A stretch of DNA of 64,000 nucleotides, taken from the sequence record OQ031492; one strand, 5' to 3'. Each line of letters opens with the position of its first letter. Within the stretch, counting starts at the first letter, position 1. Source of the DNA: Escherichia phage MRostami-2023b. Positions 2,979 through 61,825 of the stretch are shown here, in pieces. Both the position numbers and the translations under genes were made by a program. Below the pieces are notes generated by a model. That model did no database searches and was not told where the DNA came from. It worked only from the letters and a program-made list of their open reading frames with translations.

Positions 2979-4040
2979 ATGGCGAAGCCAATATATTATC
3001 CTGACTGGGCTACACAAACTGTAACGCTCCCAGGAACTTTAAACACAAACAAAATTAGACCTAAAGAAACCATCCGCACAATTGGTATGGATTATGGTCA
3101 AATCATGACTTGCGAAGAAATGAACTGGATTCTTAATAATATCGGTTTATGGATTCGCTATTTGGTGGATGACTTTCTTCCAACTTTACCTAATACCTAC
3201 TTGCCTTTAGTGGGAACTAAGATTACAATGGCAGGTGATGCTACTGGTGAGGCTACTTGGAACGGTAACAAAGAAGTTACTTTATCTATCCAGGTTCAAG
3301 ATAACAGTCATAATCACTTGTCGGCAAACATTACAGATGCCACTAGTTCAACAGTAACACCAAACGTGTTGGTAAAACGTGATGCGGGTGGTGCTATTTA
3401 TGGTGGCGATGTTTATGTTAACGGTACTTCCACAACAGATCCTGCAACACTGTTCTTCAAAAACTTTGCAGGACAAACAAATGGTGAGATTTCTGCCGAG
3501 TATCAAAGCGGAGGTCAGCTTTACATCTATCGTAGAAATCCTAGCACAGGTAGTGTATCGGCAGGTATTCGTTTATATGACGCAGGTTATGTTCTAATAG
3601 ATAATCCAAGATCAAACAGTGGACAAGATACTTCTAACGGAAATGCTTTAGTTCGTTTAGATTATCTGAACTCTCGTTTGACTTCCCTTCAGAACACATT
3701 GCAGACGAATATTAACACTGTTCAAAACAACTTGAATAATGTTAACAACAACCTCTCTTCTCGTATAAACAATGTAGAAAGTAATCATCAAAGTCAGATT
3801 ACAAATAACTACAACTATGCTAACGGAACCTTTGTAAGAGATATTCGTTATACTAGCCAAGGTGTGTATTATCCACCAGGGAACGAGGTTTCTTGGACTT
3901 ATATCTGTTCTTCTGGTTATGTTCTTTCTGGTATTATCGTACAGGAAACAGGACGTAGCTCTGCGGATAACATCGGTGGGGTTTACTTCAAACGCCTCCA
4001 GCGCAACGTTAACGGAAACTGGTACGACATTGGAGGCTAA
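2979..4040 (+). CDS. Tail fibre protein with coiled-coil segment
   Basis: 353 aa; N/Q-rich heptad-like stretch LNSRLTSLQNTLQTNINTVQNNLNNVNNNL typical of fibre shafts. Confidence 0.5.
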   Translation: MAKPIYYPDWATQTVTLPGTLNTNKIRPKETIRTIGMDYGQIMTCEEMNWILNNIGLWIRYLVDDFLPTLPNTYLPLVGTKITMAGDATGEATWNGNKEVTLSIQVQDNSHNHLSANITDATSSTVTPNVLVKRDAGGAIYGGDVYVNGTSTTDPATLFFKNFAGQTNGEISAEYQSGGQLYIYRRNPSTGSVSAGIRLYDAGYVLIDNPRSNSGQDTSNGNALVRLDYLNSRLTSLQNTLQTNINTVQNNLNNVNNNLSSRINNVESNHQSQITNNYNYANGTFVRDIRYTSQGVYYPPGNEVSWTYICSSGYVLSGIIVQETGRSSADNIGGVYFKRLQRNVNGNWYDIGG

Positions 4041-4586
4041 ATGATATTTACAAACTTTAAAAAATATATTCCTGAAGACCCTGAACTAAAAGAATTGGTA
4101 GAAGCAGAGAACATTCTTTTTCTTCGTTGCGATCAAGGTTACGATTGGTATGATTTACGTAGCACAGAATTCAATAACGATAAAATGAAAGTCGTTTTTG
4201 ATGATCAAAATCGTATTGTGTTTTGGAATACTGATCCTACACTACTTTGCCCTGAAGATCTTTCTATAGCACAAGTAGACTTTAATATAGATACTTTTGA
4301 GGATATTAGGAACAAGGTTCTGGATTTAGAAACCTTAACTCTTAAGGATAAAGAGTATTCCCGTGAAGAGTTGATGACACAAGCTAGTGCAAAAATTCGC
4401 TCTTTACAAGAAACAGCGGTAGCACTTATAACACCTTTACAGTATGCTAAAGATTTAGAAATGGCTACTGAAGACGAATTAGCTTATCTTAAAAATCTTC
4501 AAGTTTATGTAGTTAAACTAAATCGTGTTCCGCTTCAAAAAGACTATCCTTACGCTATAGATTGGCCTACATTACCGACAGAATAA
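4041..4586 (+). CDS. Tail fibre assembly chaperone-like protein
   Basis: 181 aa immediately downstream of fibre gene (stop/start abutting); size and position typical. Confidence 0.4.
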   Translation: MIFTNFKKYIPEDPELKELVEAENILFLRCDQGYDWYDLRSTEFNNDKMKVVFDDQNRIVFWNTDPTLLCPEDLSIAQVDFNIDTFEDIRNKVLDLETLTLKDKEYSREELMTQASAKIRSLQETAVALITPLQYAKDLEMATEDELAYLKNLQVYVVKLNRVPLQKDYPYAIDWPTLPTE

Positions 4587-4934: not shown

Positions 4935-7900
4935 ATGGCAACATTCCCAACATATCCAGCAACGTCTCTCGAACAGGGCGTAGACCTGGTTATTTTCTCA
5001 TCTAACCAACTCCATGATGTTATTAATGGAAGTGCTACAGAGAGTATTGAAACAGAATCAGGGTTGATACCAACCCTGAGAAAAGCCCTTGTTGACAACT
5101 TTTTCTTTAAAAGCCCATTGGATTGGGCGCAAGGCACAAACGAAACAGTTTTTAACCAACTTCGTTATTTCCAGAATGGAGTATTGAGCGGTTATTACTA
5201 TGCCCCTAACGCTACATTGGTTAACCCAATCCCTATGCAAGGGACTCCAGTAGGAGATAACAACTGGGTATTGTGGGGACTGAAGACAGAACAATTGGCA
5301 ACAGAAGTCACCCCTTGGGTATATTCTGGTGCAACTGGTTATGAAACAGTAATTAGTCCTCCTTACATCTTTGATAGTGCTATTGTTACGATCAATGGTG
5401 TTATTCAGGTTCTGGGGGAAGCTTTCCGTATAGAAGATAGTAAGATCATCTTATCTGAACCTTTGGGACACGATCCTGCAACAGGACTGCCAAACAAACT
5501 TTTTGCTTATATTGGCAAAATCGTAGCTTCAGCAGATACAGATCCTAATCTAGAGAACCGTCTTGTTAGTTTAGAAACAAAAACGGAAGAACTAACAGAA
5601 AGCATGGATAAAGTCCCTCTGCAAACTATTGCTCGTAAGTATGGTTTGTTAGATGATGAGGTGGCTTACGCAACAGCAGGTCAATCGTTAACAGGGATTA
5701 AAGCTCTGTATGATCCGGTAGCACAGTCTTCCTACACATTACCTCCTAACATCACAGGAACTTTAACATCCTTATCTGTTTCTGGAGTAATGACTTATTC
5801 TGGAGGATCTGTAGACCTTTCTGCACTGGCTGTTGAGCGTGGACAGTTTGTTCATTTGCCTACAAGCTTTGGTAATAACGTAACTCTGACAGCTAAAAAT
5901 CAGACGATTGGACGTGGTGCTGGTCGTTATCGTTGGGCTGGAAGTTTACCAAAAAGTATTTTGGCCTCTGATACATTGGAGACAAGCGGAGGATTAGGTC
6001 CAAATGCATGGGTTCTGACTAATACAGAAGGACTGTTAACTCCTCGTGGTGGAACATACAACGATCTATTCGATGTTGTCTACTTGTCAGAATTTGCTAA
6101 CAATACAACTACCTATACCACACCAGAAGCAGCTTTCCAGGCGGCACTGTTAGCAGCAAAAGCTTCGAAAAGCAAGATTCTCGATGCTTACGGTTGCGAC
6201 ATGACTTTCACGACAAGCTCTTTTGATATTCAAGATATCACTTTGCGTGGTGGTGTGTTCCGTGGTCAACGCGACTATCGTGTGCAGAATGCTACAGTAG
6301 AAGGCACAACTTTCCGTAACTCTCGTGTTATGTATTGGGGTGGTGCTGTGCGCATGTTCGATTGTTTGTGGGACGGTGCTCCTCGCGCAGGTCAAGTTGG
6401 TAGCTTGGTATTCCAAGGCAACCCAATATCAGGTACTTTTGAAATTGATAATTGTACTTTTAAAAACGGGTTATATGGCATTCTTCAACAAGGAACAGGG
6501 GAACCAGTAACACGCGGTGTCTTCCGTAACCTTACCTTCATGGACATGCAAGGTGATGCAATAGAACTGAACGTCATCAATAAACATTATGACGATGGTT
6601 GTGTGATTGAGAATATTTACCTGTCTAATATCGATGGGACTAACGCTCCTATTCCTCTGTCCAACTGGGGTATCGGTATCGGTGTAGCTGGTAAAGGACC
6701 ATATGGTTACGGAATCCCTGATGATCAATATTGTAAGAACATTACAATTCGTAACGTTTTTGCAAAACGTTGTCGTCAGATTGTCCACGTAGAAGTTGGT
6801 CGTAATATCTCTATCGAAAACATTCATGGCGATCCAGATCAAACCGTATCTGTTGGGACAGGTTTGGCAACTGGCGCAGTTGTAATGTATGGAAGTAAAG
6901 ACTTTACGATTGATGGTGTTTATGGAGAGCCTAAAACAGACGGTAGCACACTTGCAAGTAATATCCGTATGATTTACTTGGAGTGGGGAACTAACGCAGT
7001 TCTGGATGAAGAGGGTAATCCGGTAGTTCCGGCACAGGGCAGACCTTCAAACCCATGCTTTAACTATTCTGTTCGTAACATTCACACCAAAACTGGGCGT
7101 GTTTTTGCGGGAGTTTCCGCTGGGCCAGGTTATGAAAACAGAGTTAGCTTTGAAAATATTCGTTGCGCTGCCTTGCAGTTGTTCGGTATAGCTTCTTGGC
7201 TTTCAATGTCTAACATCACCTGTAATATCTTCGATTGTGTTGGTCAACCTGAATCTGGTCCAGGGACATTTTATGATGGATTCTTCCGTAGAGAAAAATC
7301 TGTTCTTGAAATGGTTAACGTAAACTGTTACCCAGATGGCAAGACGATGGTTACTGGTCGTCCACAGTGGAGCCGTTGCCGTTACTCGGATATTCATCGT
7401 GTCAACTGTAATGTTGAAGCTAATATGTATACCAATATCGCAGGTGGTATTGGAGCTATTGTAGGGACAACGGGCAAAGTTTATTACTTAGAGCCTAATC
7501 CTAGTCGAAACATTGATGGAATGCATTTCCCAACAGGGAAAGAGTTTGACAAAGGGGATATGATAGTCAAGGCGGATAATACGTTCTTCCTTGTAACAAC
7601 AAGTGGGGCATATATTCCAGATATCCCAGCTTTCGGTATTCGAGCTACACAGGCAGGAGATACCTTCCTGACACAGAACTTGACTCCTAACGGGACAGCA
7701 ACAAATGCTTCTTGGTTGTATCATTACCCTCTGTCAGCAGGGACACGTATCCGTATTCCTGGCGCTGGTGTAGGTGGAGCAGATTTGGACACAGTTATTA
7801 CTCGTGCACCTTATCAAGATAATGATACGTGGACTAACCCAGTTAAAATAGACATTGCAGATCCAATTGTAACGCCTACAAGTGCTGGAGTTAGAATTAA

Positions 7901-23092: not shown

Positions 23093-23920
23093 CTACAAAC
23101 TTTCAATAACCTGGCGTCGCAACTCGTTTGCATCTGCCAGATTATAATGTGTTCGAACATGTTCAGCCAAGAACAAGCCACGATCTTCCCGATAGTTTGG
23201 ATTGCGAAGAAGCTTAACAATTTCGTAATGCCATTCTGCTTTATTCTCTGCGTAAGCAACAGCGCGAGCATCTACAGGGTTAAAATAAGGTAATACCTTA
23301 GAACAAACAATTGGAATACCTTTTGCTCCAGCTTCCAGGATTTTGAGATTACTTTTACAATTATTAAAATCATTATCTACCAAAGGAGCTATAGCAATAG
23401 CATGACTTTCGTAAACACTCATGTAATTATCTAAATCTTTTACAGCGGCTTTATATTTAGCATTTGGTAAATTTCTGCGAATCTTAATCCACTCTTGTCC
23501 CGTGATGCTTTGTGATGCTTCATATCCCGCAATAGTAAGAAGTTCATCATCGAAAGTATTAGAGACTAGTCGTAAGTCTGGTTCGTGACTAGCACCGCCA
23601 GCCCATACAACAGGGGTACCTGATGAACGATCATTTGACAAAGTGAATTGTCCGCTATCAAAAGGAAGTGCATTTCGGATCACAACAACATTCCTATTTA
23701 AGTGACGGATCTTATATGCCAAATATTCCGTAGTCACAATAACCACATCAGCAAGCTTAACCATAGCTACAATAGCATGAGTGTTTGACTCGTATAGACT
23801 TGCTAAATAATGTTCTGGATTAAGTTGGTAGAAATCATCTAAATCTACAACAATCTTAACACCTTGACGTTTCAAAGATAAAACGTATTCTGCACCTTTA
23901 GAATGGATACGGTTAAACAC
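23093..23920 (-). CDS. Glycosyltransferase (GT-B/GT4-like C-terminal motif)
   Basis: 275 aa; KILEAGAKGIPIVCS resembles the E-A-x-A-x-G-x-P-V-V donor-binding motif of GT1/GT4 enzymes; paralogue of adjacent gene. Confidence 0.45.
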   Translation of the reverse strand: MFNRIHSKGAEYVLSLKRQGVKIVVDLDDFYQLNPEHYLASLYESNTHAIVAMVKLADVVIVTTEYLAYKIRHLNRNVVVIRNALPFDSGQFTLSNDRSSGTPVVWAGGASHEPDLRLVSNTFDDELLTIAGYEASQSITGQEWIKIRRNLPNAKYKAAVKDLDNYMSVYESHAIAIAPLVDNDFNNCKSNLKILEAGAKGIPIVCSKVLPYFNPVDARAVAYAENKAEWHYEIVKLLRNPNYREDRGLFLAEHVRTHYNLADANELRRQVIESL

Positions 23921-24028
23921 AACAACATCTTTCTTAGGTTGAATATTATTGTTGTTAAATGGTATAACAATACGATGATAGTCACAACCGCTGTGAGGTT
24001 TTGCATCAATTTTAGTTTAGACCATTTT

Positions 24029-24712
24029 TTATTTGACATGTGCTAGTGCCTCCTCATAGGAAATTCGGATTTTCCCATTTTTAATATCTTCTAAAGATGC
24101 TTTATATTCTTCCCAGTTAATCCCAATAGCAGCCTCTTTCTCTTCTTTTGTCAGGTTAGCAAAAGGCATAGGATTGTTTCCAAAAACATCGTCTGGGTGG
24201 ATATAAGCCATGATACGAAGTGGACAAGGTGTTGCCTGAATACCATGATTCAAACCAGCAGCTTGCAAACGGTGTCCCCATTCAGCATCTTCAAAACCAT
24301 AACCGTGAGTGTAAGGACGGAAATAACCCATCTTCTCAACAACGGCACGAGAATACATTGCAAATTGACACATTGCAAGTTCCCAGAGAATAACTTCTCC
24401 TTTGCTTCCAACAACTTTATCTTTGAAGTACTCCGGCATACCAAAGAAATCCCATCCTCCAGAGACAGCTTGATCTACAAAATATGTTTCCCATCCCTCC
24501 ATGACTGGGTAGCAATCGTCGTCAAAAATAAACCAATAATCATAACCTTCTTCATAAAACTGGTGCATAAGTTCATTTCTGGCATAAGCTACACCTTTAC
24601 GATCTGGATCGTTGAATACTCGAAAATCTGCACGTGGATCTGTTACAAGGTAGTCTTTAAGTGGACGGACACCTACAGTGATAACACCCACTCCGATTTT
24701 AATATTTTCCAT
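24029..24712 (-). CDS. Glycosyltransferase (GT-A fold, DxD motif)
   Basis: 227 aa; hydrophobic strand followed by FIFDDDCYP. Confidence 0.45.
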   Translation of the reverse strand: MENIKIGVGVITVGVRPLKDYLVTDPRADFRVFNDPDRKGVAYARNELMHQFYEEGYDYWFIFDDDCYPVMEGWETYFVDQAVSGGWDFFGMPEYFKDKVVGSKGEVILWELAMCQFAMYSRAVVEKMGYFRPYTHGYGFEDAEWGHRLQAAGLNHGIQATPCPLRIMAYIHPDDVFGNNPMPFANLTKEEKEAAIGINWEEYKASLEDIKNGKIRISYEEALAHVK

Positions 24713-49638: not shown

Positions 49639-49815
49639 ATGTCTGAATTCTTCACAATGGCTTTCTTAGGGATCTATTTGATTATTAGTGCTGTTGGCTT
49701 AATCATGTCTCTAATAGAGGAAATGGGAATTAAGTGGAACTGTGCATTCGGTATAGCTCTTATGCTCACTCCGGTTTGGATCTACATCTGCAAATCGGTT
49801 GAACTAATTGGTTAA
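49639..49815 (+). CDS. Small membrane protein
   Basis: Start at MSEFFT; two hydrophobic helices. Confidence 0.35.
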   Translation: MSEFFTMAFLGIYLIISAVGLIMSLIEEMGIKWNCAFGIALMLTPVWIYICKSVELIG

Positions 49816-50767: not shown

Positions 50768-50778
50768 GAGGGAAGTTT

Positions 50779-51135
50779 ATGAAAAAATTAATCTTAGCCA
50801 CATTGCTGGCTACCGTAAGCTTCACCACTTACGCTCAAAAATTTGTAGCAGTTAAAACGGATATTGGTAAAGATGTTGTGATCACAGGCAACAAATTTTA
50901 CTATACACCTGGAAATGGTGTTCTGGAAGAGTGCCAAGATGTTGAGGCATATACAGGAAAAGAAGATAACACGGAACGTCCTTTTTATTCGATTATAGCT
51001 ACTTGCAAAAATGAAATAGTAGCTATTAAACAATACAAAGATGCACCTGGAGGAGAGTACTTATTAATCAAGAATATTAAGAGTGAAAAAACTGCAAAGT
51101 TTACAGTAATTATTTTAAAAGGAGAAACGTTCTAA
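50779..51135 (+). CDS. Secreted/periplasmic protein with signal peptide
   Basis: MKKLILATLLATVSFTTYAQK… after ggaggg RBS. Confidence 0.45.
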   Translation: MKKLILATLLATVSFTTYAQKFVAVKTDIGKDVVITGNKFYYTPGNGVLEECQDVEAYTGKEDNTERPFYSIIATCKNEIVAIKQYKDAPGGEYLLIKNIKSEKTAKFTVIILKGETF

Positions 51136-54614: not shown

Positions 54615-54857
54615 TATTTTAACTTTTTTCATTTTTAGAACAAAGGTGTCACTTTGTAGCACAGAAATAAGGCTCCTACAGCACCGTAGAGAGCCTGTTA
54701 TTTTGTCCTATACAAACCCTTATCTTTTTCAGTTTGCATCACTAGGATTCGATCTAAGTGGGTTCCTGAAGGTCTACTAATAAGATTAAAGGTTATCTCA
54801 AATTCCCATTACCTATTATCTCAAAAATCCCTCAAATTATTTAAACTTTTTAAGAAT

Positions 54858-54895
54858 TTACAAAAGTGAAAGTTGAAAACCAAAATTTAAAGTTT
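54858..54895. repeat. A-rich direct repeat copy 1 in non-coding control region
   Basis: tacaaaagtgaaagttgaaaaccaaaatttaaagttta; near-copies at 54998-55035 and partial at 54937-54966. Confidence 0.5.
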
Positions 54896-54997
54896 AGGAA
54901 AATTATCTTAAAATGTTAGATACAAAACAAAACTCAAAAGTCAAGGAAAATTTTAAAAATTTTGCGCGCCCACAGTATTTAAAGTTTTTTTGCTTTT

Positions 54998-55035
54998 ACA
55001 AAAATGAAAGTACAAAAGCAAAATTTAAAGTTTAC
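54998..55035. repeat. A-rich direct repeat copy 2
   Basis: tacaaaaatgaaagtacaaaagcaaaatttaaagttta. Confidence 0.5.
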
Positions 55036-55039
55036 AAAA

Positions 55040-55175
55040 ATTTTTATGCAGGTGAGAATGAGAAGAGTTCTCATATGGAAATGCAAATGATAATGATTCG
55101 CATTTAAGTTTATAAATGAGATTGATTCTTATTTAATAAGGTAAATGATAACCATTCTCATTTAGAGAATGACGC
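55040..55175. promoter_or_regulatory. Cluster of palindromic operator-like sites
   Basis: gagaatgagaagagttctcat; aaatgc-aaatgataatgatt-cgcattt (Fur-box-like GATAATGAT core); cattctcatttagagaatg. Confidence 0.4.
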
Positions 55176-55420
55176 GCAGGGGCGGTGTTTGTCTCGCGCT
55201 CCCGTGTCCCCTCGCCATGTAATAAGAATAACAGATCCAGCCAGGAAAGCAAGCGATTATTTTATCTTTACATTTCTTTACAAATATATAGCGCCCAGCC
55301 TACCGGCGATCAACCTTCCAACCAGCGCCCTGGTATGTTAGCCCCGCCTTTACGCCGTGGGGTGGCGCTTCCTCTTCTGTATGTAAAACAGTATAAGCCC
55401 TATCCCTGGGCTTGTCAAGA

Positions 55421-55796: not shown

Positions 55797-55854
55797 TTGA
55801 CGTTCGCCAGGTGGCGGCATAATATTTACCACGTAGGGCGGCAATGGTGCCGCT
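55797..55854 (+). promoter_or_regulatory. Sigma70-type promoter (TTGACG-17-TAATAT) plus conserved leader hairpin
   Basis: -10 followed by ttaccacGTAGGGCGGCAatggTGCCGC. Confidence 0.6.
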
Positions 55855-55874
55855 CATTATTTGGAGTTAAAATC

Positions 55875-56072
55875 ATGGCAACATTGCACATTGTGGCGAA
55901 AGCTGGACAAATAAACGTGGTAGTAAACGGTTTTACTGAGTTCAGTCATCCCCAGGATGATCATGAAACGGTTTTATCTTTCATTGATTCACTGTTAGAA
56001 ATGGGAGTAATTACAGAAGACCAGCACGCTACAAAATGCAAACGCGTTAATCAAATTGCAGGGATAGAATAA
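55875..56072 (+). CDS. Small early-type protein
   Basis: 65 aa from ATG after ggagtt RBS. Confidence 0.4.
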   Translation: MATLHIVAKAGQINVVVNGFTEFSHPQDDHETVLSFIDSLLEMGVITEDQHATKCKRVNQIAGIE

Positions 56073-56078
56073 AAAGTA

Positions 56079-56137
56079 TTGACAACAAACAACAACCTGA
56101 TAAGATGTATCACATAGGGCGGGAAGTGGTTTCCCGC
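56079..56137 (+). promoter_or_regulatory. Promoter (TTGACA-16-TAAGAT) plus leader hairpin
   Basis: gtatcacATAGGGCGGGAAgtggtTTCCCGC. Confidence 0.55.
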
Positions 56138-56162
56138 TCGTAACAGAAGAGAGATTATCATC

Positions 56163-56435
56163 ATGGCATCATATAGCGCAACAATGATCGTAGCTGGCAC
56201 CACTGGTAAACCTATGTGCGGTGGCGGATCTTTCGCAAATATCAACATTGACGGGCGTTTATCCCTGGACGCAGCGATCACCGTGGCGCGGGAAACATTT
56301 AAGAAAGAATGTAAATTCAATAAACAAGATTATCTCGGTTTTGCTATTGAAAAAACCGCGCGCTTTGTTGATTATAAAAGCCCGAAAATGGTTGACACTA
56401 CATTAAAAGCGCAAGATGTAGCGTTTTTGCTTTAA
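56163..56435 (+). CDS. Small early-type protein
   Basis: 90 aa, RBS agaagagag. Confidence 0.4.
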   Translation: MASYSATMIVAGTTGKPMCGGGSFANINIDGRLSLDAAITVARETFKKECKFNKQDYLGFAIEKTARFVDYKSPKMVDTTLKAQDVAFLL

Positions 56436-56438
56436 GGC

Positions 56439-56494
56439 TTGACATTAACGACTAATTTGTTAATATGTTACATAAAGCGGGAATAGTTCCCGCT
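56439..56494 (+). promoter_or_regulatory. Promoter (TTGACA-16-TAATAT) plus leader hairpin
   Basis: AGCGGGAAtagTTCCCGCT after -10. Confidence 0.55.
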
Positions 56495-56511
56495 ATTTGT
56501 AAGGTGGTAGA

Positions 56512-56769
56512 ATGTTTTACATCAAATTAAAAGGTCACGTGATCGCGTTCAAAGATAACGCTTTTTACAGATTAGCAAAATATGCGTTAATACATCCCCA
56601 CTATGTTTATATAAGGGGGCGTGATGAAATAAATATCTTTGATCAAACAACATGCGAGAACATCGAGATCCGCAAGGTTGGCGTACGTGATTATCGTACA
56701 TCTTTCTACCCTTGCAAGGATTCAGCAAGTCTTTTCAAAGTATGCCAATTGTTGAAAAAAGGTGGTTAA
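56512..56769 (+). CDS. Small early-type protein
   Basis: 85 aa, RBS aaggtgg. Confidence 0.4.
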   Translation: MFYIKLKGHVIAFKDNAFYRLAKYALIHPHYVYIRGRDEINIFDQTTCENIEIRKVGVRDYRTSFYPCKDSASLFKVCQLLKKGG

Positions 56770-56770
56770 T

Positions 56771-57328
56771 ATGGGCCGCGAATATGTGATCCAGTCTTGG
56801 GTAAAACATGAAGCAGATGATCCGCGCATCATTCCCGATCATCTTATCGATGAATCCACGGGATATAGCGGTGAGCAAATAGGTAACAGATTAGCACGTA
56901 GTAACGGCAACGTAAAAGCACGTTATGTGCGCCCTGGCTGGCTGGCAAATGGTAACGCTGATTTATCCAGTGCGGAAGATGCGAGCGACGGCGCGAAAGA
57001 TAATCCTTTGTACAAAGTTGATCCGGCTTTTCGTGTCCTGGATGAATACCCCAGCAAGATAGCGGCGCTCGATCAGGCCCTGGAAAGTAAGCGCATCACC
57101 TGGACCGCTTACAACATGGCAAAAAACGTACTTGATGGTAAATTGATTCAAGCTGAAAGAAAATTAGCCAAAATTGCAGCTATAGCCCAGGAGGAAGACG
57201 AGGAGACAACGGAAGAGGAAGAGTACGAAGAGATCCCGCCGTTGTTGTGTGTTGATGCTTTTCCTGATTATCAGCCGACAGAGGAAGAAAAAAGGATCGC
57301 ACTAGAAAACTTTGAAAATAGTCTTTGA
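56771..57328 (+). CDS. Acidic hypothetical protein
   Basis: 185 aa from MGREYVIQ; Glu-rich C-terminal tract. Confidence 0.4.
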   Translation: MGREYVIQSWVKHEADDPRIIPDHLIDESTGYSGEQIGNRLARSNGNVKARYVRPGWLANGNADLSSAEDASDGAKDNPLYKVDPAFRVLDEYPSKIAALDQALESKRITWTAYNMAKNVLDGKLIQAERKLAKIAAIAQEEDEETTEEEEYEEIPPLLCVDAFPDYQPTEEEKRIALENFENSL

Positions 57329-57382
57329 CATATCGCCGCCACTGGCATAATATTTACCACGTAGGGCGGCAATGGTGCCGCT
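57325..57382 (+). promoter_or_regulatory. Promoter (TTGACA-17-TAATAT) plus leader hairpin
   Basis: Near-identical to 55797-55854 element. Confidence 0.55.
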
Positions 57383-57410
57383 CATAGTAAAATTATGCAA
57401 GAGGTTTGCA

Positions 57411-57506
57411 ATGATTAATAAAGAAAATAGCTTGACGGTTGGAACGATTAACGCTATCATTTTCGCCGTTCCATTTTGGGTTGTAGTAGCGGCTATTATT
57501 TTCTAA
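57411..57506 (+). CDS. Tiny hydrophobic peptide (31 aa)
   Basis: MINKENSLTVGTINAIIFAVPFWVVVAAIIF; own promoter-hairpin. Confidence 0.3.
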   Translation: MINKENSLTVGTINAIIFAVPFWVVVAAIIF

Positions 57507-57515
57507 AAAATATTC

Positions 57516-57576
57516 TTGACAACGTTTTTTAATCTGATAAGATGTATCACATAGGGCGGCGGAATACTTCCCCGCC
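57516..57576 (+). promoter_or_regulatory. Promoter (TTGACA-16-TAAGAT) plus leader hairpin
   Basis: gtatcacATAGGGCGGCGGAAtacTTCCCCGCC. Confidence 0.55.
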
Positions 57577-57597
57577 AAAACAAAAAAGGGTAACACA

Positions 57598-57960
57598 ATG
57601 AGCAAGCAAATCAGTACTATCATGTTTAATCTGGTATCTTTCCGCGATGATATGAAAAATTTACCACGTGAAACGGTTGATATTCATGTTTCAGCTTATC
57701 GCGCCCTTATTGACATGTTACCGCTAAAACGTGATCAACATGCCGCTAATATGATGCTTAATGCTATGCTTAAAAAGATGATTCAAACTGATCTCACCCT
57801 GGCATATGAGTATCAAGGGCGCTTATATGCAACTTACAACAAAACGGTACCTGGTTTGGGAAGTACCGAAGAGTTGCACGGCTTAAACCTGGATCAAAAC
57901 ACTTGGGATAGTATGCGCCGCGTTATGGTATGGGCCGAAAGCGGTAAAATTTACGAATAA
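57598..57960 (+). CDS. Small early-type protein
   Basis: 120 aa. Confidence 0.4.
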   Translation: MSKQISTIMFNLVSFRDDMKNLPRETVDIHVSAYRALIDMLPLKRDQHAANMMLNAMLKKMIQTDLTLAYEYQGRLYATYNKTVPGLGSTEELHGLNLDQNTWDSMRRVMVWAESGKIYE

Positions 57961-57966
57961 AAACGG

Positions 57967-58023
57967 TTGACACTGTTTAAACTTCTGGTATAGTTTATCA
58001 CGTAGGGCGGCAATGGTGCCGCC
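57967..58023 (+). promoter_or_regulatory. Promoter (TTGACA-16-TATAGT) plus leader hairpin
   Basis: ttatcacGTAGGGCGGCAatggTGCCGCC. Confidence 0.55.
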
Positions 58024-58043
58024 AACAATAAAAGGTTAACACC

Positions 58044-58409
58044 ATGGCTATTAATATCAATGTTTCCGCTTATGCTACCCTGGCTAACACGGCTAAAATC
58101 GAATTATCCAGCATTGAGGCGGTGCATATTAGCGCCCGTCGCTGGTTTCAAAAGTCTTATGGTAATACTTATTTCTCTTTGATGGTTGACGTTGAGATCG
58201 GCGGTAAATTGATCGAAGTGGTTAACGTTCCGTTTCAATATGGCTATGGTGATCATTTTGATACCGTCGCCCTGGAAGAATTTAGCAAGGTTATCAACCT
58301 TGAGGGCAAGGAATTTTCACGCGGCGCGTATCTTTCCCGTTTTTGCCGTGACAATGGGATCACTGTATACAGTCATGCAAGCGATGTTAAACGTAAAAAA
58401 GATCTATAA
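58044..58409 (+). CDS. Small early-type protein
   Basis: 121 aa. Confidence 0.4.
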   Translation: MAININVSAYATLANTAKIELSSIEAVHISARRWFQKSYGNTYFSLMVDVEIGGKLIEVVNVPFQYGYGDHFDTVALEEFSKVINLEGKEFSRGAYLSRFCRDNGITVYSHASDVKRKKDL

Positions 58410-58415
58410 AAAGCA

Positions 58416-58475
58416 TTGACAGCACGAATAAAAAGCGTAAAATGTTTTATATCGAGAGCGGGAACACTTCCCGCC
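58416..58475 (+). promoter_or_regulatory. Promoter (TTGACA-16-TAAAAT) plus leader hairpin
   Basis: GCGGGAAcacTTCCCGC after -10. Confidence 0.5.
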
Positions 58476-58498
58476 TCACTGAAAAAGAGAGAAAAATC

Positions 58499-58738
58499 AT
58501 GGCTAAATCTAAAATGTACAACGGTCACAAAAACAAAACTCATTGGAATGTAAGCCTTTGGATTAATAACGATGAATCGTTATACCGGTTGGCCCAAGAT
58601 TTTATTAACGCTAATGCTAATCGTAATGATGCGGCGCGGGATATGATGCTTTTTCTGGAACAAACTGGACAAGATAAAACGCCAGACGGTTTCAAATATA
58701 GCACTACTGCGATCCGTGCCGCGATGGTTGGAATGTAA
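58499..58738 (+). CDS. Small early-type protein
   Basis: 79 aa from MAKSKMY. Confidence 0.4.
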   Translation: MAKSKMYNGHKNKTHWNVSLWINNDESLYRLAQDFINANANRNDAARDMMLFLEQTGQDKTPDGFKYSTTAIRAAMVGM

Positions 58739-58746
58739 TAAAAACA

Positions 58747-58805
58747 GTTGACAACGTTTAAAATTAGTGTAAGATGTATCACATAGGGCGGGAAGTGGTT
58801 TCCCG
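58747..58805 (+). promoter_or_regulatory. Promoter (TTGACA-16-TAAGAT) plus leader hairpin
   Basis: Near-identical to 56079-56137 element. Confidence 0.55.
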
Positions 58806-58828
58806 CCAAAACAGAGAGATTAAAGATT

Positions 58829-59056
58829 ATGGCTATCAATATTGTTCGCGTATCCGGCACCGTTGGCACTTCACAGGTTATTGCAGTCGTCACNNNNNNN
58901 NNNNNNNNNNNNNNNNNNNNNNCCTTGAATAAGTGGGCTATTGCTAATTTTGGGGAATATGCAAGCGTCGAGTACATCGAATCCTACCAGGTGCCAACCA
59001 TCAGCCTAACCGATCTCAACGTTGATCGCCTGTTATGCCTGGATGAATTAATCTGA
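58829..59056 (+). CDS. Small early-type protein (39 N inside)
   Basis: 75 codons incl. masked part. Confidence 0.3.
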   Translation: MAINIVRVSGTVGTSQVIAVVXXXXXXXXXXXLNKWAIANFGEYASVEYIESYQVPTISLTDLNVDRLLCLDELI

Positions 59057-59065
59057 AAAAGATTG

Positions 59066-59122
59066 TTGACACGGGAAAGAAAAAGAGTAAACTATATTAC
59101 GTAGGGCGGCAATGGTGCCGCT
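59066..59122 (+). promoter_or_regulatory. Promoter (TTGACA-16-TAAACT) plus leader hairpin
   Basis: atattacGTAGGGCGGCAatggTGCCGC. Confidence 0.5.
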
Positions 59123-59143
59123 CACAACAGAAGAGAGATTATC

Positions 59144-59339
59144 ATGNNNNNNNNNNNNNNNNNNNNNNNNNNNNNNNNNNNNNNNNNNNNNNNNNNNNNN
59201 NNNNNNNNNNNNNNNNNNNNNNNNNNNNNNNNNNNNNNNNNNNNNNNNNNNNNNNNNNNNNNNNNNNNNNNNNNNNNNNNNNNNNNNNNNNNNNNNNNNN
59301 NNNNNNNNNNNNNNNNNNNNNNNNNTTATAAAATAAAGC
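59144..59339 (+). CDS. Small ORF, start only; remainder masked
   Basis: ATG after agaagagagattatc RBS; 179 N follow. Confidence 0.2.
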
Positions 59340-59401
59340 TTGACAATAATTTGTTATCTAGTAAAGTGTACGACATAGGGCGGGGCAATAAGGCAACGCC
59401 C
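59340..59401 (+). promoter_or_regulatory. Promoter (TTGACA-16-TAAAGT) plus leader hairpin variant
   Basis: gtacgacATAGGGCGGGG…CGCCC. Confidence 0.45.
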
Positions 59402-59419
59402 ACTAATGAGGGTAAAATC

Positions 59420-59524
59420 ATGTTAGAGAAAATTTTCACGGTTGCAGTGGTTGGCCTGGCGTTATCGGTTGGAGTGGTTGCAACTATGGCTAACATGATC
59501 CTATCTTCCCACGGTATCGGCTAA
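59420..59524 (+). CDS. Tiny hydrophobic peptide (34 aa)
   Basis: MLEKIFTVAVVGLALSVGVVATMANMILSSHGIG. Confidence 0.3.
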   Translation: MLEKIFTVAVVGLALSVGVVATMANMILSSHGIG

Positions 59525-59534
59525 GGTGAAACAA

Positions 59535-59750
59535 ATGATCACGAATAAGACAGGTAAAACGGAATTTTTACGCGGCTTGCAAGTTGGTAAACCTGAGATC
59601 TGGCATTGTACTAAATCCGCACACAATGAAATGAAAGACTTTACCGCTAGTTTACAACGTGTTAAAATATCTATTACGCAGAAAAAAGCCTTGATAGTTG
59701 CAGAAAACGAGATCCCGCAAACCATTATTATTGTCGAGCGTACAGCATGA
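59535..59750 (+). CDS. Small early-type protein
   Basis: Start at ATG after aaggtg. Confidence 0.35.
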   Translation: MITNKTGKTEFLRGLQVGKPEIWHCTKSAHNEMKDFTASLQRVKISITQKKALIVAENEIPQTIIIVERTA

Positions 59751-60133
59751 AAACAGAAATCATTAACGAAATCATCAACGGCTATAAAGAAGCCTTTATT
59801 TTTGCTGAATCAGCAAGGGATCATGAAGGTAATTTTATTGATAACTTAGACGATTATGATTTTTCTCCTAGCGCGGACAAACGGATCGCCCAGGATGTAA
59901 CAGCCTTTATTAATGCTAATCTTGCCGCTATCTCTGAGGCAATGAGCGACGGCGCAACAGCCAACCAGATCGGCAATGATTTACATTTTACCCGTAACGG
60001 TCACGGCGTAGGCTTTTGGGATCGCCTTGAAATCTACACCACTAACACGGCGAACCGCCTAACCAATGCAGCTAAGTTTATGCCGAACGTGTCGGCTTAC
60101 ATTGGTGAAGATAATTTGATTTATATTGAATAA
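59747..60133 (+). CDS. Small early-type protein
   Basis: 128 aa, ATGA overlap. Confidence 0.4.
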   Translation: MKTEIINEIINGYKEAFIFAESARDHEGNFIDNLDDYDFSPSADKRIAQDVTAFINANLAAISEAMSDGATANQIGNDLHFTRNGHGVGFWDRLEIYTTNTANRLTNAAKFMPNVSAYIGEDNLIYIE

Positions 60134-60139
60134 AAAGTA

Positions 60140-60252
60140 TTGACACAGATCGCCAGTGTGATAATATTTACCACGTAGGGCGGCAATGGTGCCGCTGACA
60201 CAGATCGCCAGTGTGCTTATATTTAATGCGTAGGGCGGCAATGGTGCCGCCG
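60140..60252 (+). repeat. Tandem duplication of promoter plus leader hairpin unit (two ~56-bp copies)
   Basis: ttgacacagatcgccagtgtg…gtagggcggcaatggtgccgc followed by ctgacacagatcgccagtgtg…gtagggcggcaatggtgccgcc. Confidence 0.6.
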
Positions 60253-60269
60253 ATAATGAGGAAAGTAAA

Positions 60270-60569
60270 ATGGAAACTATCGCTATTGTTACCGTAGAAA
60301 AACTGGTTGTTGGTGATGTATTCGCGTTAATGGTGCCTAACAGCAGCAAGCTGGGCGCTTATGAAGTAATGGATCATAAAAATGAATCATTTGGCGACGG
60401 TTGCACAATGGCGGTAAAATCTTTAAAGGATGGAATCATCCGCCAGGCTAACTGGCACAAAGGGAATCAAGTCGGATTAATATCAGCTAATTTCTTGCCA
60501 GAAGAGCAAACGTTAGACCAACTATCAGGCGGTAAGACGTTAGCCGAACTACTGGAAACAGCGATCTAA
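60270..60569 (+). CDS. Small early-type protein
   Basis: 99 aa. Confidence 0.4.
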   Translation: METIAIVTVEKLVVGDVFALMVPNSSKLGAYEVMDHKNESFGDGCTMAVKSLKDGIIRQANWHKGNQVGLISANFLPEEQTLDQLSGGKTLAELLETAI

Positions 60570-60577
60570 TCAACAAA

Positions 60578-60593
60578 GGGGCGGCAACGCCCC
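60578..60593 (+). other. GNRA-loop hairpin in intergenic leader
   Basis: GGGGCG-gcaa-CGCCCC; no U-tract. Confidence 0.4.
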
Positions 60594-60613
60594 ACGTCAG
60601 AAAGGAAAAGATT

Positions 60614-60850
60614 ATGAGTATTGCAACAGTATTAAACGCCGTTAAAACCGCTGAATCATCCGGCTTACATGTTGAGCTTATAGATCAACCAGGTGGCGAT
60701 CTCCTTGTCCAGGTTTACCCGCCGAAAGTAGGGGATGATCATTATTGGTGCTATTCTGATACGTTCGAACAAGTAGACACGAAAGCGATCACGGCTTTTA
60801 TTTTAAAAGCTATTGAAGAAAATAACTTTCATTATAACATCAATCAATAA
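60614..60850 (+). CDS. Small early-type protein
   Basis: 78 aa. Confidence 0.4.
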   Translation: MSIATVLNAVKTAESSGLHVELIDQPGGDLLVQVYPPKVGDDHYWCYSDTFEQVDTKAITAFILKAIEENNFHYNINQ

Positions 60851-60859
60851 ACCATAAGC

Positions 60860-60875
60860 GGGGCGGTAACGCCCC
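60860..60875 (+). other. GNRA-loop hairpin in intergenic leader
   Basis: GGGGCG-gtaa-CGCCCC. Confidence 0.4.
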
Positions 60876-60905
60876 ATTAAACGCAATAGGAAGAGGCTAG
60901 AAAGC

Positions 60906-61190
60906 ATGAAAAAGATGATCGCAGTAGTTGCCCTGGTTGTTGGTATTAACGCGCCTGTACTGGCTAATGAGTTGCCAGAATCCATCACGTTAACCGATAT
61001 TAACGCAGTGAATCGGATCGGTGTTAATTATCGCCTATGCCTTGCCGCTAAAACTTTCCAGGACGGCACAACAGAGTACTACGGATTCGAGGGTATCCGC
61101 TGCGGTGAGCTTTCACGCGACCTTAAGGAAGATCCAGACCTTGAGGCCATACCGATGACCGTAAACGGTAAAGCCCACGTAAACCGCTAA
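60906..61190 (+). CDS. Small secreted protein with signal peptide
   Basis: MKKMIAVVALVVGINAPVLA…. Confidence 0.4.
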   Translation: MKKMIAVVALVVGINAPVLANELPESITLTDINAVNRIGVNYRLCLAAKTFQDGTTEYYGFEGIRCGELSRDLKEDPDLEAIPMTVNGKAHVNR

Positions 61191-61192
61191 CC

Positions 61193-61327
61193 ATGAGAAA
61201 GGTAATCATCACAATGGGGATCGTAGTAGCAACGCTGGCGCTTATCCCTTTCATGGTTGAACATGTGCTGATCAATGTTGTCCTGGTAGTCAGTGACCTA
61301 TTGGAAACGGTTGGCAACTGGTTTTAA
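61193..61327 (+). CDS. Small hydrophobic membrane peptide (not in ORF table)
   Basis: 44 aa MRKVIITMGIVVATLALIPFMVEHVLINVV…. Confidence 0.3.
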   Translation: MRKVIITMGIVVATLALIPFMVEHVLINVVLVVSDLLETVGNWF

Positions 61328-61335
61328 GATAATAA

Positions 61336-61362
61336 ATAGGGCTTGCAATAGTCCTATTTTTT
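61336..61362 (+). terminator. Rho-independent terminator
   Basis: atagggc…gtcctat stem followed by tttttt. Confidence 0.5.
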
Positions 61363-61501
61363 GTTATACTTATTGAACGGGCGGCACCTGGGAGCAGGGG
61401 AAGATAATCACCAGAAGACCCCGCTATATATTGATAACTAACGCCTATCAAACAACAAAACATCAAAGGAACAAACTATCAAATCTTTACAATTCTACCT
61501 A

Positions 61502-61551
61502 TTGACACCGGATCACGCTTACATTATTATTTATCACGTAGGGCGAGAATG
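61502..61551 (+). promoter_or_regulatory. Promoter (TTGACA-17-TATTAT) plus start of leader, truncated by N run
   Basis: ttatcacGTAGGGCGAG then masked. Confidence 0.45.
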
Positions 61552-61825
61552 NNNNNNNNNNNNNNNNNNNNNNNNNNNNNNNNNNNNNNNNNNNNNNNNN
61601 NNNNNNNNNNNNNNNNNNNNNNNNNNNNNNNNNNNNNNNNNNNNNNNNNNNNNNNNNNNNNNNNNNNNNNNNNNNNNNNNNNNNNNNNNNNNNNNNNNNN
61701 NNNNNNNNNNNNNNNNNNNNNNNNNNNNNNNNNNNNNNNNNNNNNNNNNNNNNNNNNNNNNNNNNNNNNNNNNNNNNNNNNNNNNNNNNNNNNNNNNNNN
61801 NNNNNNNNNNNNNNNNNNNNNNNNN
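61552..61825. other. Masked sequence (274 N) bounded by near-identical promoter-leader copies
   Basis: Both flanks read attattatttatcacgtagggcgag. Confidence 0.8.

Follow-up and report, generated by a model that had tools for sequence, protein, structure and literature searches.

Introduction

Are the very short hydrophobic reading frames that some Escherichia coli phages carry behind promoter and hairpin sequences genuine genes and, if so, what could their products do in the infected cell? The question is raised by a stretch of 64,000 nucleotides of Escherichia phage MRostami-2023b (sequence record OQ031492), here called the window, in which a first-pass annotation had singled out three open reading frames (ORFs) as tiny hydrophobic peptides with dedicated promoters and a fourth as a similar peptide. 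They are named P1 (57411-57506), P2 (59420-59524), P3 (61193-61327) and P4 (50603-50767), all on the + strand. The four ORFs are present as described and encode 31, 34, 44 and 54 amino acids followed by a stop codon. Their hydrophobic character was confirmed, the maximal Kyte-Doolittle means over 19 residues (KD19) being 2.57, 2.34, 2.59 and 2.45, respectively.

Judged from its sequence, the window is a portion of a phAPEC8/rV5-type lytic E. coli phage, its identity to Phapecoctavirus genomes (ESCO5, nieznany, phAPEC8) being ~96%. The region 56700-61500 is ~95-98% identical to Phapecoctavirus genomes (nieznany, ESCO5, dw-ec and phAPEC8 relatives), with the patchy coverage expected of a mosaic region, and gives weaker matches to Justusliebigvirus (phi92) and Vequintavirus (rV5, FV3). 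For comparison, 14 loci were fetched from 13 phages.

Coding status of P1, P2 and P3

Hydrophobicity alone was rejected as proof of a gene: among the 279 ATG-initiated ORFs of 25-70 amino acids found in the six frames of the window, 12 reach a KD19 of at least 2.2, eight of which are not candidates. The 18 other genes scored, the five small peptides being excluded, do not exceed 2.01. What raises the candidates above chance is a Shine-Dalgarno sequence (P1, P2 and P4), a start abutting the preceding stop (P3), a place free of overlap with the neighbouring genes and in the orientation that these all have and, for P1-P3, intact orthologues with a coding substitution pattern. All homologues of P1-P3 in the fetched relatives are intact ORFs, and the three peptides are conserved across Stephanstirmvirinae and Vequintavirinae. 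Summed over P1-P3, variable sites number 59, 30 and 77 at codon positions 1, 2 and 3 (chi-square p = 4e-5), the second position, which sets hydrophobicity, being the least variable. All homologues hold a 17-residue window with a Kyte-Doolittle mean of at least 2.3, including the P2 homologue of rV5 and the P1 homologue of Klebsiella phage FKP3, which are no more than 50-54% identical, and the Shine-Dalgarno sequence and ATG of P1 and P2 are conserved. The sense frame is the sole + strand frame open in all homologues, and its ratio of nonsynonymous to synonymous polymorphism (pN/pS; pooled values 0.37 for P1, 0.29 for P2 and 0.38 for P3) is lower than that of the antisense frame. P1-P3 also share their orientation with every neighbouring gene. 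Taken together, these results indicate that P1, P2 and P3 are very probably genuine small membrane proteins.

The existence and the membrane character of the peptides are already published annotation. The rV5 genome paper counts 15 rV5 proteins with transmembrane domains (PMC3606486) and describes both gp173 (46 amino acids), the P2 orthologue, and gp170 (44 amino acids), the P3 orthologue, as 'membrane protein, 1 TMD' (one transmembrane domain; Kropinski et al. 2013, PMC3606486, Table S3; TMHMM/Phobius). These two proteins (phrog_14631 and phrog_16005, respectively) are direct orthologues with the same neighbourhood; nothing of substance differs, and they likewise carry no assigned function. 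Other records are less complete: ESCO5 annotates no orthologue of P1, P2 or P3 (locus positions 1575-1667, 3592-3693 and 5364-5495), and P1 and P2 are absent from the annotation of many records.

Gene context of P1 and P2

P1 and P2 lie within standard cassettes made of a sigma-70-type promoter, a GC hairpin, a Shine-Dalgarno sequence and the ORF. The first-pass annotation had placed a promoter-hairpin element before each of P1-P3; the element is real but precedes only P1 and P2, whereas the nearest one to P3 lies ~950 nucleotides and three genes upstream, at 60140-60250, and P4 has none. A dedicated promoter could be retained for P1; P2 shares its promoter with the two genes that follow it in an operon of three, while no separate promoter serves P3 or P4. 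The single helix attributed to the peptides fits P1 and P2, as well as P3, which is modelled as one helix with a tail, but not P4, which has two segments.

P1 (MINKENSLTVGTINAIIFAVPFWVVVAAIIF) combines a polar N-terminal half with a C-terminal membrane helix and is preceded by the Shine-Dalgarno sequence GAGG at 57401-57404. Its promoter-hairpin element (57325-57383, + strand) comprises a -35 box TTGACA at 57325-57330, a -10 box TAATAT at 57348-57353 and a GC hairpin at 57364-57383, which has a folding energy of -14.4 kcal/mol (RNAfold) and begins a few nucleotides past the expected transcription start. No other ORF lies between the promoter of P1 at 57325 and the next one at 57516, and P1 is thus monocistronic. 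In phAPEC8 and PsgM04F another gene lies directly 3' of P1, where in the window a complete promoter comes next instead. Orthologues were found by tblastn in 113 GenBank phage records, and P1 is intact in all 11 sequences compared (the window and 10 relatives), at 31-37 amino acids and with the conserved polar motif MIxKENSLTVGTINA. The loci compared place it in at least three distinct gene neighbourhoods. It is called a hypothetical protein in nieznany, Schickermooser, ukendt and Ro121c4YLVW, and profile scans gave neither a PHROG nor a Pfam match. The fetched rV5 locus has no counterpart of P1, and none was seen among the Vequintavirus records listed.

A 120-amino-acid gene lies nearby at 57598-57960, and its orthologues are labelled 'membrane protein' in ESCO5, nieznany, alia and ukendt. 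This label looks wrong, because the best 19-residue hydrophobicity is merely 0.62.

P2 (MLEKIFTVAVVGLALSVGVVATMANMILSSHGIG), a 34-amino-acid single-helix peptide, has its Shine-Dalgarno sequence GAGG at 59408-59411. The preceding element (59340-59401, + strand) consists of a -35 box at 59340-59345, a -10 box TAAAGT at 59362-59367 and a variant hairpin, GGGCGGGGCAATAAGGCAACGCCC, at 59378-59401. This hairpin accompanies P2 even without the promoter part, as seen in phAPEC8 and FV3, and in phi92 the region upstream of P2 is a junction within a hairpin. P2 is followed on the + strand by a 71-amino-acid gene (59535-59750, phrog_5988) and a 128-amino-acid gene (59747-60133, phrog_1915), both of families without an assigned function. 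The gap between the P2 stop and the next start codon is 10 nucleotides, and an AAGGTGA resembling a Shine-Dalgarno sequence overlaps the stop.

Orthologues of P2 are present in 156 GenBank phage records (tblastn), and the C-terminal motif ATM(A/S)NMILS(S/F)(H/N)GIG is retained in every homologue, including that of the rV5 locus, which is 50% identical over the full length. The full-length profile match is to phrog_14631 (E 8.5e-22). A phmmer search against 1.8 billion representative proteins returned two clusters, both from the same phage lineage. Masked bases affect this part of the window: runs of N total 2701 bases (58894-58922, 59147-59325, 61552-61825 and eight more) and hit genes adjoining P2 and downstream of P3.

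P3 and its signal-peptide partner

P3 (MRKVIITMGIVVATLALIPFMVEHVLINVVLVVSDLLETVGNWF) has neither its own promoter nor a clear Shine-Dalgarno sequence and comes fourth and last in an operon that starts at tandem elements at 60140-60250. Its potential membrane-spanning stretch covers residues 4-22. Position 23 is charged, with a sign that varies across homologues (E, R or K), and the tail beyond is hydrophobic, then amphipathic. AlphaFold2 predicts a single 42-residue helix (residues 2-43, predicted local distance difference test score, pLDDT, 91.8), a model that says little since hydrophobic peptides default to helices.

The gene immediately upstream (60906-61190, + strand) encodes a 94-amino-acid protein of phrog_9845 with a predicted cleavable signal peptide (MKKMIAVVALVVGINAPVLA/NELPE), and P3 starts 2 nucleotides past its stop. 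In Schickermooser and PsgM04F the two genes overlap (ATGA), and a TAAnnATG or ATGA junction is found in 9 of 9 loci. Such a start, abutting or overlapping the upstream stop, is the usual signature of translational coupling, and the sequence therefore points to P3 being coupled to this gene. The partner lies directly upstream of P3 at every P3-bearing locus, its signal-peptide-like N-terminus is conserved, and it has two conserved Cys. Its AlphaFold2 model (pLDDT 78.5) shows three strands, a helix and a strand. Foldseek found no match to this model in the PDB at E < 0.1, and the only BFVD hits at E <= 0.01 were an uncharacterised phage protein and a near-duplicate of 96% identity. When P3 and the partner were used in word-indexed searches, all matches came from the same phage group. 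A spanin pair formed by P3 and this partner was ruled out, given that only ~20 residues follow the membrane stretch of P3, where an inner-membrane spanin has a long periplasmic domain, and that the signal peptide ends in VLA/NE without a lipobox Cys.

P3 orthologues occur in 158 GenBank phage records (tblastn), and P3 matches phrog_16005 over its full length (E 1e-29). The rV5 orthologue is 61% identical over the full length, of equal length and beside the same neighbour gene; in rV5 and FV3 the contiguous order is P2 orthologue, 71-amino-acid gene, signal-peptide gene and P3 orthologue. P3 was not seen in Justusliebigvirus, either in the tblastn record listings or in the fetched loci. Judged from sequence conservation, the true start is the first ATG, giving 44 amino acids, because MRK is conserved, whereas some homologues have Leu or Ile at residue 8. 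The 37-amino-acid version found in many database entries, including phAPEC8 gp248 (fetched locus 4185-4298), which begins at the internal ATG, would thus be too short. The operon is closed by an intrinsic terminator at 61334-61366 (+ strand), with a 10-bp stem and a T run, and a terminator is annotated at the equivalent site of phAPEC8.

The promoter-hairpin elements form a cassette array

The pattern TTGAC-N15-40-TAGGGCG has 10 matches on the + strand, against 0.15 expected. Each copy of the element has a near-consensus -35 box, a spacer of 16-17 nucleotides, a -10 box of the form TAnnnT and a GC hairpin with a folding energy between -12 and -15 kcal/mol that starts ~3-5 nucleotides past the expected transcription start, as judged from sequence positions. 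A Shine-Dalgarno sequence and an ATG follow 8-20 nucleotides past each hairpin. The elements start at 55797, 56079, 56439, 57325, 57516, 57967, 58416, 58748, 59066, 59340, 60140, 60195 and 61502, and in the array so formed (55797-61545, + strand) each cassette of promoter, GC hairpin and Shine-Dalgarno sequence precedes one to four small orphan genes. The phAPEC8 record annotates the 20-mer of the hairpin as 'putative promoter determined with PHIRE', a label under which a transcribed stem-loop was probably misread.

Comparison of the window with nieznany, Schickermooser, ESCO5 and ukendt revealed insertions and deletions of whole cassettes, with breakpoints at 58033-58051, 60196-60230 and 60593/60860, all within elements or hairpins. 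The tandem elements at 60140-60250 (+ strand) are two adjoining promoter-hairpins that enclose no gene. They resemble the scar that recombination between elements would leave on deleting a cassette, because Schickermooser keeps a 63-amino-acid gene between the corresponding copies. Further downstream, two near-identical promoterless GC hairpins, GGGGCGGCAACGCCCC (60578-60593) and GGGGCGGTAACGCCCC (60861-60876), flank the gene 60614-60850; exactly this gene is missing from ukendt, where the breakpoints fall at the flanking hairpins. These comparisons are evidence that the peptide genes sit in a recombining cassette array.

The arrangement recalls the PeSL cassettes of T4-type phages, in which an early promoter is combined with a stem-loop (Arbiol et al. 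2010, PMC2839356; Comeau et al. 2014, PMC4122927). Both systems place a sigma-70-like promoter, a GC-rich stem-loop and a Shine-Dalgarno sequence between small orphan genes, and in both the insertion and deletion breakpoints of close relatives fall within the elements. The present elements, the activities of which are predicted from sequence, belong to Stephanstirmvirinae and Vequintavirinae rather than to T4-type phages and are an analogue at most. Their stem-loop has a fixed position just past the -10 box, inside the predicted transcript, and no U tract, whereas PeSLs fall into five position classes. This modular array is a more interesting feature than the peptides themselves.

The short-gene array occupies the + strand from 55.8 kb onward and starts directly after an AT-rich stretch at 54.6-55.4 kb. 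This stretch (54615-55420) has no convincing genes and contains repeated motifs, including a 29-nucleotide unit present in 2.9 copies at 55085-55169; it may be the counterpart of the ORF-free region of rV5 (104013-106618).

P4 and other small membrane protein genes

P4 (50603-50767, + strand) had been listed as a similar peptide, a view that did not hold: the resemblance is limited to hydrophobicity, and P1-P4 show no sequence similarity among each other. By their sequences, the four are not members of a single family. In P4, the residues GEYCSE separate two hydrophobic segments; the gene has a Shine-Dalgarno sequence AGGAG and sits in a tightly packed operon without a promoter-hairpin element. 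Grouping it with P1-P3 was therefore rejected. Its orthologues, found in 70 phage records (tblastn), are almost all labelled hypothetical protein, and its full-length profile match is to phrog_27459 (E 1.4e-38). Directly after it comes a gene for a 121-amino-acid signal-peptide protein (50770-51135, + strand, phrog_5474). A small membrane protein beside a secreted protein is thus seen twice in the window, with P4 and with P3.

The same operon contains a gene missing from the first-pass annotation, which encodes a two-segment membrane protein of 58 amino acids (49639-49815, + strand) with a full-length profile match to phrog_22639 (E 1.5e-42). On the - strand, a 55-amino-acid hydrophobic ORF at 23872-24039, with a GGAG Shine-Dalgarno sequence and a slight overlap with both longer minus-strand neighbours, could be a further small membrane protein gene. 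Relatives carry another 39-amino-acid 'membrane protein' cassette that is not in the window (phAPEC8 gp259, locus 980-1099; rV5 ORF 181, locus 7711-7830; a third locus, 6641-6760), which makes small membrane peptides a recurring cargo of the cassette array.

Searches for a function

Pfam and NCBIfam include curated families of small toxins and small membrane proteins, such as Hok, Ldr, TisB, Ibs, Fst, AcrZ, MgrB and KdpF. P1-P4 gave no match at E <= 0.1 to any Pfam-A or NCBIfam family, these included, and profile scans of the neighbours likewise yielded nothing but PHROGs of unknown function. An Rfam scan of 49-64 kb at E <= 1 returned no match and so no sign of known RNA elements. In the literature on early-gene transcriptomics or small membrane proteins of Vequintavirus and Phapecoctavirus, nothing specific was found except the rV5 annotation table. 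The suggestion that came with the first-pass annotation, namely membrane-targeting inhibitors, superinfection-exclusion factors or toxins, is generic, and no curated family, structure or paper that we found assigns a function. A holin was ruled out, as the neighbours were scanned without a match to a lysozyme or endolysin family and the genes lie in an array of host-promoter cassettes.

The closest functional analogy for the peptides is T4 Imm, and otherwise the single-helix regulators and toxins of bacteria. In T4, Sp is periplasmic, and Imm and Sp split the labour between membrane and periplasm. P1-P3 resemble Imm as predicted small membrane proteins of a lytic myovirus, and P3 with its signal-peptide protein recalls the pairing of Imm with Sp. 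Imm, a membrane protein of 83 amino acids (9.3 kDa), binds the tape-measure protein and thereby keeps the genome from being translocated (bioRxiv 10.64898/2026.03.06.709160). It has several helices, in contrast to the single helix of P1-P3, which are not known to confer exclusion. No Pfam or PHROG match annotated as Imm-type was obtained, and the predicted fold of the partner has no match in the PDB.

Among bacterial single-helix inner-membrane peptides of ~20-50 amino acids are type I toxins (Hok, TisB, Ldr, Ibs) and regulators (AcrZ, MgrB, MgtS, KdpF, CydX). To these, and to the product of the T4 ac gene (mentioned in PMC13250531), P1-P3 are alike in size, in having one hydrophobic helix and, by prediction, in acting at the inner membrane. 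They differ from the bacterial peptides in that no sequence relationship was found, no antisense RNA or similar control is evident, and P1-P3 are borne by phages of one lineage.

Discussion

We consider it probable that P1, P2 and P3, together with P4 and its 58-amino-acid neighbour in the other operon, are bona fide and mutually unrelated genes for small inner-membrane proteins that belong to an accessory set and would act on the envelope. The accessory status of P1 and P3 is suggested by P1 not being seen in the Vequintavirus records listed and P3 not being seen in Justusliebigvirus. With much less confidence, we propose by analogy an envelope-directed accessory function, for example exclusion or the modulation of a host membrane protein.

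The following course of events can be proposed. Given their sigma-70-type promoters, the peptide genes would be transcribed by the host RNA polymerase straight after infection. In E. coli, a 5'-terminal hairpin should protect an mRNA against 5'-end-dependent degradation; the hairpin, which would lie within nucleotides of the mRNA 5' end, would probably stabilise the transcript and may damp read-through. The peptides would then insert in the inner membrane, where they would have no catalytic role but would bind, helix to helix, a target embedded in the membrane. Synthesis of P3 would keep pace with that of its periplasmic partner, the two probably constituting an envelope module anchored in the membrane. 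Altering the envelope of the infected cell would be the most likely task of the peptides, either by blocking the entry of DNA from further phages or by modulating a host membrane protein.

Several points weigh against this proposal. The antisense frame of P1-P3 is also open in all homologues, at a pN/pS of 0.47-0.50. At the sequence level pN/pS thus separates the strands modestly, and as a decisive strand test it is weakened; the open antisense frame can be viewed as a by-product, because its stops need an A at sense position 2, which hydrophobic codons, with a T there, lack. The timing of transcription, the translation and the membrane location of the peptides are read from sequence, and the role of the hairpin as a 5' stabiliser draws on general knowledge of mRNA decay. 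Since the hairpins have no U tract, a role as terminator or attenuator is doubtful. The functional part of the proposal is argued by analogy: the PHROGs matched by P2, P3, P4, the 58-amino-acid protein and their neighbours are all families of unknown function, and families this narrow permit no guilt-by-association beyond their own neighbours.

Other explanations have to be weighed against small membrane proteins of an accessory set. One, which we regard as unlikely, is more ambitious: P3 and its coupled 94-amino-acid partner would form an undescribed two-part envelope module, for example for superinfection exclusion or anti-defence, in which the P3 helix anchors or regulates the secreted protein, P1 and P2 would be specific inhibitors of membrane proteins of the host or of its defences, and all would be mobilised as promoter-hairpin cassettes.

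It also seems rather improbable that the peptides are membrane-damaging toxins which depolarise or permeabilise the inner membrane, in the manner of type I toxins or of holins and antiholins, and serve host shut-off or lysis timing. A length of 31-44 amino acids and a single very hydrophobic helix are typical of such peptides, but no Pfam family, small-toxin and holin families included, was matched at E <= 0.1. The neighbours tested gave no endolysin-type match either, the location being an array of host-promoter cassettes and not the side of an identified lysis gene. The conserved polar motifs, in the N-terminal half of P1 and in the C-terminal ATMxNMILSSxGIG of P2, suggest specific contacts, not bulk damage.

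That the ORFs are leaders or spacers with irrelevant peptides, their translation governing mRNA stability or expression of the following gene, with P2 controlling the 71-amino-acid gene 10 nucleotides downstream and P1 being filler between promoters, appears very unlikely. The short distance from P2 to the next start, the AAGGTGA over its stop and the gene found directly after P1 in phAPEC8 and PsgM04F would suit such a role. However, amino-acid sequence and hydrophobicity are kept at 50-54% identity, with invariant motifs, P3 comes last before a terminator and hence has nothing downstream to regulate, and P1 in the window precedes a complete, separate promoter.

Finally, we give almost no credit to the view that these are chance ORFs in a U-rich spacer, conserved through a DNA or RNA constraint or an opposite-strand gene: the eight non-candidate ORFs with a KD19 of at least 2.2, the open antisense frame with its pN/pS of ~0.5 and the lack of annotation of P1 and P2 in many GenBank records could be cited for it, but start, Shine-Dalgarno and stop positions are conserved, the sense frame is the only + strand frame always open and has the lower pN/pS, the ORFs are oriented like their neighbours and fill the post-promoter slot as the neighbouring genes of 68-188 amino acids do, the antisense ORFs run into the promoter-hairpin elements and have no obvious start signal in the window, and no Rfam family is matched.

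As a sequence observation, the peptides add nothing past the published annotation. Useful by-products of the analysis are the evidence for a recombining cassette array and corrections to annotation, namely the 44-amino-acid start of P3 against the 37 amino acids of phAPEC8, and P1 and P2, which are missing in many records. Phages encode many small membrane proteins, most of them unstudied, and several of those that have been characterised, such as T4 Imm, control infection at the membrane. Each of the P1-P3 families is represented in 113 to 158 sequenced E. coli phage records, among them phages considered for therapy, so that there is practical value in knowing whether their products exclude other phages or harm the host.

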